This document shows, piece by piece, positions 10,049 to 12,971 of a stretch of 17,529 bases of DNA. Each line of letters opens with the position of its first letter. Positions within the stretch are counted from its first letter, which is position 1. The position numbers and the translations under genes were made by a program. Origin of the DNA: Candidatus Odinarchaeota archaeon (lineage in GTDB: Archaea > Asgardarchaeota > Odinarchaeia > Odinarchaeales > Odinarchaeaceae); NCBI GenBank assembly GCA_038826135.1, contig JAWBON010000023.1, positions 1 through 17,529 of the forward strand, read 5' to 3'. The notes beneath the pieces are model-generated. The model was not told the origin of the DNA, ran no database searches, and saw only the letters and a program-made list of their open reading frames with translations.

Positions 10049-11827
10049 ATGGAGAATGACAATCTTCTAAACGAGGCGAATCTGTTATTTAAACAAGAAA
10101 AATACAAGGATTTAATCAATTTATATGAAAGCCTGCAGTCGCTAGATAATTTAGATTACCGTCACTTCAAAATTTTAGCAGTAAGTTATCTTCAGACGTT
10201 TCAATACAATGAGGCTTTAAAAACATTCGATGAATGTATTAAAAGATACCCTCGCATAGAGGAGCGGGATCAACTTATAGTTGAACCATTATACCTATTC
10301 GCGCATAAGCTTCTTAAAAACCGGCAGTATGAAGACTTTGAAAAAGCTAGAAAACTCCTTTTAACTTTTAACCCCGATTACTATTTTTTTAGAAGCATGA
10401 TCTGGAAGCTGAAAAGCTTCAGAGACATGGATAGGCGCGGAAACTTCGATAACGCTATAACTATGATAAATCACGTGCTTGAGGGTGAAAAATACCTTAG
10501 ATCAGATATTGAAAGGGAGAGGGAGCGTGAAAGCTGGGAGGAGAAGTGCTTTGATCACCTGCAAAGAGCGCTCGAAATATCAGGCGGGTTACCATTCATA
10601 CTTGAAGAGCTGGGTTTATTCACCCTGATGATATTAGACTTCGAAGAATCTGAGAAATATCTCAGCAAAGCATATGCTATGAACCCTGGAAGCGAAACTA
10701 TAAGATATCACTTAGGCTTTTTAAACGAGAAAAAAGGAGTATATGAAGATGCTATAAAATACTATAAAGAAGCCTTAGAAATAGACCCATCCTACACGTT
10801 ATGTGACAGACATATTAACGTTTGCAGAGCTAAAATTTTATTATCATCCGCTCTTAGCGATCATAGAAGAGGGGCATATGAAGAAGCGATAAAAAAATAC
10901 CGGGAAAGCATTCAATTAAATCCGGAGGACCGTGAAGCTGTAAATAAGATGAAAATAGCTGTTAAACAGAATATAAACAAGTGTATTTCAGAGGTTAAAG
11001 AATATATTCAAAATCATAAATTGCTAGAAGCTGAAAAACTCCTTTCCAAGCTTATGGATGAGTATCCCGGTGACAGTGATGTAAAAGACATGTACTATAA
11101 ACTCGCTGAGAGCACTCACCAACAGGACATTAATAGGCAGATAATTTTAAACAGGGAGCGGGAGCGCGATGAAAGTCTCATACTAATAACTGCGCTTGAA
11201 ATATTAAGAGATAAGAGCGTCGCCGCCGAGAATAAGTTAAACTTAATAACCGGCGAACTCTCCAAGCTTTCGGAACAACAGCAGCTTAAAATTCTCGAAA
11301 GCCTCCGTATGATAGAAGCCTCAGCTAACGACGTTGGAAAGAGACTGGATCAATTATTATGCACTGAACTAGATAGAATCAACTGCACCTCAAGCTGTTT
11401 CATACCAGCTTTAATTGAAACTAATATACCTGTAGACTTATGGTTAACTGTAGATTTAAACAGTAAAATAAAACAAGTTGTTAAAAAATATAATAGATGG
11501 GTTGAAGGCATTCCCACCGTTATAAAATATGATTTAACTAGTAATCTGTTAACGCAAGCCTCTGGTTTAATACCGGTAAAAGCTATTCTTTTAATCGATA
11601 AAAAAGCTGATGGGCCTGCGGCTTATCAAATATGGCTTAGCTCAGAAGGCCAGTTACTTCTCTTAAAGGCGAGCAGCTATACTGAAACCCGTAATTTACC
11701 GAATACTATAATAGGTGAATGGATTTTCACGCCGGAGAAGGCGGCTCTCCATAACCGGCTTATACAACTCCACCGTTATGAAATAAAAACTGTCATAGAT
11801 GGATTAATTGAAAAGTCTACCAGTTAA
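10049..11827 (+). CDS. Tetratricopeptide-repeat protein with an unassigned C-terminal domain
   Basis: About 5-6 TPR-like units, e.g. LAVSYLQTFQYNEALKTFDECIKRYP, HLGFLNEKKGVYEDAIKYYKEALEIDP and YEEAIKKYRESIQLNP. Confidence 0.85.
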   Translation: MENDNLLNEANLLFKQEKYKDLINLYESLQSLDNLDYRHFKILAVSYLQTFQYNEALKTFDECIKRYPRIEERDQLIVEPLYLFAHKLLKNRQYEDFEKARKLLLTFNPDYYFFRSMIWKLKSFRDMDRRGNFDNAITMINHVLEGEKYLRSDIERERERESWEEKCFDHLQRALEISGGLPFILEELGLFTLMILDFEESEKYLSKAYAMNPGSETIRYHLGFLNEKKGVYEDAIKYYKEALEIDPSYTLCDRHINVCRAKILLSSALSDHRRGAYEEAIKKYRESIQLNPEDREAVNKMKIAVKQNINKCISEVKEYIQNHKLLEAEKLLSKLMDEYPGDSDVKDMYYKLAESTHQQDINRQIILNRERERDESLILITALEILRDKSVAAENKLNLITGELSKLSEQQQLKILESLRMIEASANDVGKRLDQLLCTELDRINCTSSCFIPALIETNIPVDLWLTVDLNSKIKQVVKKYNRWVEGIPTVIKYDLTSNLLTQASGLIPVKAILLIDKKADGPAAYQIWLSSEGQLLLLKASSYTETRNLPNTIIGEWIFTPEKAALHNRLIQLHRYEIKTVIDGLIEKSTS

Positions 11828-12291
11828 TCCTCACATTTACTATAATCCTCTCGAACCTGTTCATAGTATGCCTCACTAGAAATCCCCCAGTCACCAGGTT
11901 CGCTTCCAAGATGTTTAAGTGTTTTCAAGGCAATAAAATACACTGATGTTTCACCGCTTCTATTAAGCTCGTGCACCGCGTCTTTTCTTAACACTCTCAC
12001 CCCGTAGTCTTTAACTATACTTATAAGGGATCCAACACTATCCGGATCACCTATCGAATAAAGTATTCTTATAAGTGTGAATTTTAAAAAATTATGTTTA
12101 ATCCCCGGCAGCATTTTACATATCGCCTCAGCTGATGGTTTACCTATTCTAGCTAACGCCATCATTGCTTTTCCAGCTATAACCTGATTCTTATCAATGT
12201 TAGCGGCAAGATAATTTAATAGCCCATATACGTCTTTCTTCTTAAGCATTCTAGATATTTTCAAGTGCGTGAAGATGCTGAGCAACCTCAT
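11824..12291 (-). CDS. HEAT-repeat (PBS-lyase-like) protein (alternative GTG start at 12297)
   Basis: KKKDVYGLLNYL N-cap, then AMMALARIGKPSAEAICKML and LIRILYSIGDPDSVGSLISIV HEAT-like units; stop overlaps the TPR gene stop; TTATAA box at 12335-12340. Confidence 0.75.
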   Translation of the reverse strand: MRLLSIFTHLKISRMLKKKDVYGLLNYLAANIDKNQVIAGKAMMALARIGKPSAEAICKMLPGIKHNFLKFTLIRILYSIGDPDSVGSLISIVKDYGVRVLRKDAVHELNRSGETSVYFIALKTLKHLGSEPGDWGISSEAYYEQVREDYSKCED

Positions 12292-12365
12292 TCCCACCTT
12301 ACTGAAAGCCTATTTGAAAATGGTTCAACCTCACTTATAAGATGTTGCCATCCATATTAGATAAA

Positions 12366-12373
12366 TTTATATT
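12366..12373 (+). promoter_or_regulatory. TATA box for the queT transcript
   Basis: TTTATATT with a purine-rich upstream BRE-like run; standard spacing predicts a transcription start near 12393-12397, where the GC-rich element begins. Confidence 0.55.
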
Positions 12374-12392
12374 TACTAATAGTATAATTATT

Positions 12393-12446
12393 CGGTGCGG
12401 GTGGAGCCTCCCTCCGTTCCGCGTAATAAACCCCGGCTGGGAGATT
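12393..12446 (+). ncRNA. Structured GC-rich 5' leader of queT; candidate cis-regulatory RNA (riboswitch-like)
   Basis: 35 of 51 nt are G/C in 12393-12443, versus 2 of 32 immediately upstream. Stem GCGGGUGGAG/CUCCGUUCCGC with loop CCUCC; the loop is complementary to the SD GGGAG at 12439-12443. Confidence 0.5.
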
Positions 12447-12971
12447 ATGAATAAGACTCTCATGATTTCTCTAACAGCTGTTTTCGCTTCGCTTTACGCT
12501 GCAGGAGTTATTTTACTAGCACCTATATCTTACGGCGAGATCCAGGTTAGAGTAATAGATTGCTTGATACCTCTCTCGGCTGTTCTCGGTCTCCCAGTCG
12601 TTTTTGGCGTAACTTTAGGAAACATAGTTGCAAACATATTCGGCGGCCTTGGGGTGGTGGACATAGTTGGCGGAACAATAGCTAATTTTATAGCCTCTTT
12701 AACAGTGCTTTATATAAACAGAGAAAAAACAGTTTTAGAGAATTCGAAAACAATGTTCGCGGTAACCTACGCTTCCACTCTTTTAGCCACAGTTATAATA
12801 ACTTTAATAGTCGGATCCTATCTGGCTGTAATCTTTTCCGTGCCTATTACAGTAATGATGCTGAGCATATTCTTAGGCTCATTTATATCGATCACAATAT
12901 TAGGCGGTTCTATTATAATTCTACTTCGAAAAGCTGAGCCTTTTAAAACCATTTCAAAACAGGTAAGTTAG
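12447..12971 (+). CDS. queT: QueT-family (COG4708) membrane protein, putative 7-deazaguanine precursor transporter; real start ATG 12447 rather than TTG 12342
   Basis: FASLYA...LAPISYGEIQVRV..L...GVTLGNIVAN..G.LG.VDIVGG matches the QueT signature; multiple hydrophobic helices; SD GGGAG directly upstream of ATG 12447. Confidence 0.85.
   Translation: MNKTLMISLTAVFASLYAAGVILLAPISYGEIQVRVIDCLIPLSAVLGLPVVFGVTLGNIVANIFGGLGVVDIVGGTIANFIASLTVLYINREKTVLENSKTMFAVTYASTLLATVIITLIVGSYLAVIFSVPITVMMLSIFLGSFISITILGGSIIILLRKAEPFKTISKQVS

Follow-up and report, generated by a model that had tools for sequence, protein, structure and literature searches.

A conserved pseudoknot leader of archaeal queT genes as a candidate preQ0 riboswitch class

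Riboswitch control of queT is established in bacteria, where the leaders of these genes sense preQ1 (PMC11625349). Three bacterial classes, preQ1-I, preQ1-II and preQ1-III, serve as the points of reference for any new element upstream of a queT gene, and one of them, preQ1-II, is restricted to Bacillota (PMC11625349, PMC11602147). When the preQ1 family was reviewed in 2024, only bacterial classes were treated and archaea were not mentioned (PMC11625349). Riboswitches of any kind are rare in archaea, and a survey from 2017 counted fewer than 90 of them, most belonging to two classes, TPP and fluoride, that are shared with bacteria (PMC5473149).

The leader described here precedes a queT gene of an Asgard archaeon and lies within a window of 17,529 nucleotides, the whole stretch of DNA that was analysed. 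That this leader is a real, conserved and structured cis-regulatory RNA is close to certain. It is probably also a metabolite-binding riboswitch, whatever its ligand, a judgement made in the absence of binding or expression data. The more specific proposal is that approximately positions 12394-12446 constitute an undescribed, archaea-specific riboswitch whose ligand is a free 7-deazaguanine, in all likelihood preQ0, and which represses queT at the level of translation. We lean towards this proposal while recognizing that no binding data support it.

The queT locus and the parts of its leader

The window belongs to a 1.26 Mb genome of hot-spring origin that is 93% complete. The product of its queT gene matches the Pfam family QueT (PF06177, E 1.3e-26, 94 bits), and the match begins at residue 9 when the protein is started at 12447. 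The spacer between queT and the divergent HEAT-repeat gene is 149 nt long and uneven in composition. GC content is 25% over its first 95 nt (12298-12392) and reaches 68% over 12397-12443 (63% over 12393-12449), which bears out the GC island of the original prediction, a reading made from the letters of the window alone. All of the sequence features which that reading listed between 12366 and 12449 are found where it placed them, the TATA box of queT among them (Table 1). Further upstream, the palindrome CTTATAAG (12333-12340) is situated about 36-43 nt before the GTG start of the HEAT gene (12297, minus strand). It could serve as the TATA box of that gene, in which case the two divergent promoters would be approximately 30 bp apart.

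Table 1. Features of the queT leader and its flanking genes in the window
Feature	Position	Strand	Pairing, basis or description
TATA box TTTATATT, queT promoter	12366-12373	+	Sequence
P1, 5' strand GCGG	12397-12400	+	Pairs with 12419-12422
Junction G-U, unpaired, conserved	12401-12402	+	Invariant in 15 protein-anchored leaders
Local hairpin P2	12403-12415	+	GGAG 12403-12406 with CUCC 12412-12415, loop CCUCC
Anti-SD CUCCC	12408-12412	+	Inside P2; complement of GGGAG 12439-12443
CCG, then junction UU	12414-12418	+	CCG 12414-12416 pairs with CGG 12434-12436; final U near-invariant
P1, 3' strand CCGC	12419-12422	+	Covariation as for the 5' strand
A-rich linker L3 GUAAUAAA, then conserved CCC	12423-12433	+	Family comparison
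Pseudoknot helix, 3' strand	12434-12443	+	CGG 12434-12436, spacer CU, SD GGGAG 12439-12443; complements 12408-12416
HEAT-repeat gene	11824-12297	minus	Divergent neighbour of queT
queT, regulated gene	12447-12971	+	174-aa substrate-capture component of ECF transporter

The architecture of the leader differs in part from the one first proposed. A single stem of 10 bp had been drawn between GCGGGUGGAG (12397-12406) and CUCCGUUCCGC (12412-12422). Both sequences are present, but they make up two helices, P1 (GCGG with CCGC) and P2 (GGAG with CUCC), separated by a conserved internal loop. P1 could gain two more wobble pairs from U12396 and G12395, if these bases are transcribed. The complementarity proposed between CUCCC and the SD GGGAG, which ends three bases before the ATG of queT, is also present, and the helix is longer than was supposed, with CCG and CGG pairing as well. 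Two competing interactions on the earlier list, AGCC with GGCU and a CCC-GGCU-GGG hairpin, are not conserved in relatives. The unpaired G-U at the P1 junction is a candidate for the ligand pocket or for a tertiary contact, a role that is inferred.

Several observations bear on where the leader sits in its transcript. From the usual distance between an archaeal TATA box and its start site, transcription of queT is predicted to begin at about 12394-12398, a position for which there are no RNA data. An upstream element, TAGATAA-N-ATTTATAT, is common to the window and three congeners, and the TATA box of the window is 4 bp nearer to the leader than are those of the congeners. The AT fraction of 182 distinct copies of the element is highest (0.92) at positions -31/-30, counted from the first G of GCGGG. 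This TATA-like peak spans -37 to -29 in the family and predicts a start a few bases before P1; its fixed distance would put the element at the very beginning of the mRNA. Two runs labelled metatranscriptomic yielded short contigs elsewhere in the window and left the start of the leader uncovered. The only piece from metatranscriptomic runs that crosses the motif is 37 nt long and derives from another organism's copy.

Conservation, covariation and exclusive folds

QueT homologues were located by protein search in 60 relatives, and the DNA upstream of each was then read. An element of about 55 nt is common to 15 leaders anchored in this way, which represent the genus and the order of the window's organism together with four further Asgard families. 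Because this set was reached through the QueT protein, the conservation observed in it is not an artefact of a motif search. The element opens with GCGGGUG, a variable hairpin, CCG, a junction of 2-5 nt ending in U, and CCGC. It continues with an A-rich linker that ends in AAA-Y-CCCGG and, after another 1-6 nt, an SD-like purine run. The original prediction would have failed without a comparable structure upstream of orthologous queT genes; one is present there, and it covaries both in the stem and in the pairing between loop and SD.

Pattern scans extend this distribution to six families among 400 Asgard genomes and, in GenBank, to records named Bathyarchaeia, Nitrososphaerota/Thaumarchaeota, Methanomethylicota, Promethearchaeota and Hermodarchaeum. 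Every convincing copy is archaeal. The pattern matches in bacteria have neither the CCG-UU-CCGC core nor the SD pairing and appear fortuitous. One record (L085) carries a bacterial title, 'Candidatus Deferrimicrobium sp.', and is the same as an Asgard locus (L050, genome G157) over the motif and 45 nt downstream; it is probably a mislabelled or mis-binned contig. Contigs of another organism in the same hot-spring samples (runs X2, X4, X6 and X8) carry a second copy of the motif, which differs from positions 12407-12443 of the window at 3 of 37 nt and has unrelated flanks.

Fifty-six copies served to train a covariance model, R1, with one Asgard subtype (f12/f26/f27) left out. The model recovered all 19 copies of the held-out subtype, at E values from 1e-4 to 8e-10, and gave no match on queT-like loci without the motif. 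Its sole significant match in the 1.26 Mb genome of the window is at 12391-12458 (51.2 bits, E 8e-12), the next match having an E value of 0.05. When an even sample was drawn from the phylum of a Bathyarchaeia carrier, 28 of 151 genomes had a match. A model-based alignment was used, because MAFFT, applied to all subtypes, misplaced the P1 3' strand of the f12 type.

In a set of 187 copies, the linker is 7-18 nt long, is 59% A and ends in AAA-Y-CC. The junction takes different forms in different lineages (UU, AU, UGCU and AGUU), and its final base is U in 186 copies. This set was partly selected by the search pattern. Many of the positions that appear invariant are fixed by the search patterns, so that conservation is partly a matter of ascertainment, a concern that is reduced, not removed, by the 15 protein-anchored leaders and the held-out test of the model.

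The RNA motif is absent from the QueT-like genes of two Asgard families, f17 and f20 (L011, L014, L018, L020 and L021). These genes carry a DNA palindrome, TACGTA-N4-TACGTA, at 10-25 nt before the start, and in L014 it is a perfect 16-mer. The palindrome could act as an operator for a regulatory protein; alternatively, the genes may encode components for a different substrate.

The core of P1 consists of four invariant pairs, GCGG with CCGC, and its covariation is observed in the pairs that extend it outwards. The first of these is formed in 73 of 75 copies (GC 39, AU 23, CG 4, GU 4 and UG 3), and the second in 52 of 75, with six pair types. None of 500 shuffles reached the covariation score of P1, and the signal is lost when the partner strand is slid by 1-3 columns. 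Over 56 relatives, pairing in the columns of P2 amounts to 95%, and some of the changes affect both sides of the hairpin.

The pseudoknot helix unites the P2 loop, the 3' strand of P2 and CCG on one side with CGG, a short spacer and the SD on the other. At least 12 compensatory variants of this helix are found across lineages, including CCUCCC:GGGAGG, CCUCCU:AGGAGG, CUUCCA:UGGAAG, CACCUCC:GGAGGUG, CUCGCA:UGCGAG, UUCGCA:UGCGAA, CCUCUCA:UGAGAGG and CCCAU:GUGGG. Several of the changes in the helix fall upstream of the SD core, in a region that is unconstrained by ribosome binding. Duplexes between loop and tail have a mean energy of -11.2 kcal/mol for cognate partners versus -9.1 kcal/mol for swapped ones, a result reached in none of 10,000 permutations, and in 5 of 10,000 when only 14 non-redundant representatives are used. 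The invariant CCG:CGG block was left out of this test.

P1 and the long-range helix together describe a classical H-type pseudoknot in which the A-rich linker is the third loop. By analogy with H-type pseudoknot riboswitches, this linker is inferred to dock in the minor groove of P1. The long-range helix takes up at least 2 nt of P2's 3' strand in 70 of 75 copies, and this sharing of nucleotides makes the hairpin and the pseudoknot mutually exclusive folds. No pairing partners can be assigned to the G-U, the last U of the junction or YCC because these positions never vary. One copy that combines U11 with UCACGG (L310) hinted that position 11 might form a tertiary pair with the middle C of CCCGG; this idea was rejected, U11 being explained by a U-G pair in P2.

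Associated genes, proposed mechanism and other readings

QueT homologues lie downstream of the motif in relatives as they do in the window, and nearly all genome copies precede one. The 120 metagenomic copies include 101 before QueT and 3-4 before QueE-like radical SAM proteins. Four others stand before different membrane proteins, two of them without a Pfam match and one weakly matching an ECF substrate-binding component, and the rest are truncated. For the QueE-like proteins, the five best NCBIfam matches are all QueE models, at full length and with E about 1e-31; the scores are below the bacterial cut-offs of these models.

Some copies reach further into the pathway. One Nitrososphaerota MAG (G401; L305, L309 and L310) has three, located before queE-queC (QueC 120 bits), before queE-like-folE (GTP cyclohydrolase I 119 bits) and before queT-queC (QueT 73 bits, QueC 129 bits). 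In the third of these, UCACGG replaces UCCCGG, which is invariant elsewhere. In another genome (G404, L308:2-856), the gene after the motif is queE, and behind it lies an open reading frame, cut by the end of the locus, with a glutamine amidotransferase domain. This frame resembles the N-terminus of Gat-QueC and may represent a Gat-QueC-type archaeosine synthase. Across distant lineages, the element is observed to be tied to a single pathway, represented by queT, queE, queC, folE and the Gat-QueC-like frame, and this set of genes is the regulon expected of a preQ0-pathway sensor. The SD-sequestering pseudoknot of the original prediction has survived wherever it could be checked, that is, in the covariation between loop and SD, in the queT orthologues and in the leaders of queE, queC and folE.

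A mechanism can be proposed from these comparisons, although it involves an inferred small-molecule ligand. P1 would close a loop, and the anti-SD CUCCC within that loop could pair in either of two ways. When preQ0 is scarce, the anti-SD would pair with GGAG in P2, leaving the SD free and allowing QueT to be translated. When preQ0, the inferred ligand, is abundant, it would bind at the junction between P1 and the long-range helix and stabilize the pseudoknot. The invariant G-U, U and AAA-YCC residues are placed at this putative junction, and their assignment to a pocket is likewise an inference. In this conformation, the anti-SD and the adjacent CCG would pair with the downstream CGG...GGGAG, giving an H-type pseudoknot whose third loop is rich in A. 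The SD and bases up to -4 from the AUG would be buried, and ribosome binding would be blocked. Such OFF logic, and with it any effect on expression, is inferred; end-product repression of this kind would suit uptake and synthesis genes alike.

The covariation and the gene association would suit any trans-acting factor that recognizes the folded leader. The leader could, for instance, be the binding site of a preQ0-sensing regulator, or of tRNA-guanine transglycosylase acting on a substrate mimic, with the protein stabilizing one of the two folds. The DNA palindrome before the QueT-like genes of families f17 and f20 is a sign that protein control may exist in the phylum. We nonetheless consider a protein site unlikely. 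No candidate partner gene is present in the flanks that were inspected, which are those of the window, L305 and L308-L310 and do not amount to a systematic search. Approximately 20 near-invariant nucleotides in unpaired or junction positions are retained across phyla, as is typical of small-molecule aptamers. Compactness (about 50 nt) and a direct overlap with the SD are further traits that the leader shares with known translational riboswitches.

The metabolic setting bears on which small molecule the proposed preQ0 riboswitch would sense. The genome of the window encodes a tRNA-guanine transglycosylase (TGT, 286 bits) and, away from queT, two EcfT/CbiQ genes. The archaeal transglycosylase inserts preQ0. 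Neither QueD nor QueF was found in four genomes of the genus, and full-length QueC was not found there either, the only matches being ones of 25-30 bits to the PP-loop region of larger proteins; the genomes searched for these three proteins include a single-contig genome that is 98% complete. QueF was not found in a further genome (G017), and QueE was not found when the window's genome alone (93% complete) was searched with one protein query. The presence of TGT where QueD, QueE, QueF and full-length QueC were not found suggests dependence on an imported precursor, and the genus appears to rely on precursor salvage. Because QueF was not found, preQ0 is taken to be the free base that matters here.

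A regulon that contains folE, queE and queT could in principle respond to any product or intermediate of the pathway. The leader might then be a riboswitch for preQ1, CDG, guanine, archaeosine base, queuine or an early intermediate formed after GTP cyclohydrolase I, and preQ1 is what bacterial queT leaders sense (PMC11625349). An alternative ligand nevertheless seems rather improbable, since no route to preQ1 has been found in the genus or in G017, where QueF was not found. preQ0 is both the base inserted by the archaeal transglycosylase and the end product of the regulated enzymes. Its salvage is, moreover, expected in archaea (PMC5372724).

The energetics of the window copy raise a different issue. 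Its fold is by itself not above chance, with an MFE of -20.6 kcal/mol and a z-score of -0.27, and 72 of 200 shuffles fold equally well; its significance arises only through comparison. According to the nearest-neighbour model, P2 contributes -4.3 kcal/mol, P1 and P2 together -10.8 kcal/mol and the long-range helix -10.7 kcal/mol, which makes the two folds near-equal in energy, and they are nearly melted at 75 C. The pseudoknot of the window is the weakest in the family, with 5 + 3 bp, because its SD reads GGGAGA instead of GGGAGG. In the test with 14 representatives, all 13 foreign partners pair better with the window copy than its own does. Balanced folds that nearly melt at this temperature, in a hot-spring organism, would be compatible with a structure that needs no ligand, such as an RNA thermometer, an mRNA-stability element or a constitutive damper of translation. 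There is, however, very little to recommend such a structure when the element stands only before preQ0 pathway genes, in up to three operons of one genome, and is present in many other metagenomic records (habitats not examined) as well as in hot-spring genomes. A thermometer, furthermore, has no need of invariant unpaired nucleotides.

Finally, the notion that the GC island encodes an N-terminal extension of QueT begun at 12342 can be dismissed: the codon there (ATG, not the TTG given in the original prediction) does open an in-frame extension of 35 codons through 12447 in the window genome, but the upstream frame is closed in three congeners, whose open frames are 174-178 aa long versus 217 here, the Pfam match starts only at residue 9 of the 12447 product, and the conserved pattern is that of base pairing and not of codons. 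The 12342-12446 frame is a chance open frame across the leader.

If the element represents a widespread archaea-only class that binds preQ0 through an aptamer fold of its own, 7-deazaguanines would be sensed by a fourth RNA architecture of independent origin, and Asgard archaea would have their first known riboswitch class. RNA metabolite sensing would then have arisen or persisted independently in a lineage related to eukaryotes, and a fourth natural 7-deazaguanine aptamer would become available for structural comparison. The class would also supply genetic evidence for preQ0 import by archaeal QueT as a source for archaeosine synthesis. In addition, archaeal genetics, including that of thermophiles, would gain a compact ligand-controlled switch. 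The occurrence of the class in both Asgard and TACK lineages means that it is possibly older than their split. Our judgement is evenly divided on the full evolutionary claim, which is that of an archaea-only class, possibly of this age, whose preQ0 aptamer is unrelated to the three bacterial preQ1 classes.

Comparison with known riboswitches

No family in Rfam 15 reaches its gathering score anywhere in the window. The earlier suggestion that the leader falls outside preQ1-I, preQ1-II and preQ1-III is upheld even at a permissive threshold, as none of the three gives a match at E <= 10 on positions 12300-12520. A copy closer to the consensus (L121) likewise has no match to preQ1-I or preQ1-III in Rfam 15. 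The best weak match was to wcaG RNA (17.9 bits against a threshold of 42, E 0.27) and was rejected as chance. Full-text literature searches found no description of the element.

Fluoride and TPP riboswitches resemble the element in that they, too, occupy leaders in archaeal genomes, where they sense an ion or a metabolite (PMC5473149). They are shared with bacteria, and their sequences and ligands are unrelated to those of the element. Of the three preQ1 classes, the preQ1-III riboswitch (RF02680) is also associated with queT, and it has an anti-SD in a hairpin loop that pairs dynamically with the SD; for the archaeal element, such dynamics are inferred. It is approximately 100 nt long, with five helices and an SD that is far from the pocket (PMC11625349), in contrast to the element's length of about 50 nt.

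The preQ1-II riboswitch (COG4708/queT motif, RF01054) shares with the element its position in queT leaders and the inclusion of the whole SD in a pseudoknot helix. It adopts the HLout type of pseudoknot, in which the third loop contains an additional hairpin, P4, and U-A-U triples make up the floor of the pocket (PMC11625349, PMC11602147). The third loop of the element is instead a plain A-rich linker of 7-18 nt without a U-rich strand; although it was not folded separately, this loop is too short and A-rich to contain a P4 hairpin.

The likeness to preQ1-I (RF00522, types 1-3) is greater. In both RNAs, P1 is short and GC-rich, the third loop is rich in A, and the H-type pseudoknot takes SD bases into the 3' strand of its second helix. 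Both also precede queT and que synthesis genes and act on translation, an effect that is inferred for the element. The element is nevertheless larger, at about 50 nt compared to 34, and its second helix has 8-12 bp and competes with a local hairpin, whereas that of preQ1-I has 2-4 bp. The invariant residues of the element (GUG, CCG-UU and YCCCGG) are unlike those of preQ1-I. In particular, preQ1-I pairs its ligand with a C, within AC or UC, immediately on the 5' side of the P1 3' strand (PMC11625349), where the element has U in 186 of 187 copies. An equivalent C would be possible only if the first C of CCGC were unpaired, and that pair never varies. The element is found in archaea, and preQ1-I in bacteria. 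Among known riboswitches, preQ1-I is therefore the closest in working principle, and the likeness is one of topology only.
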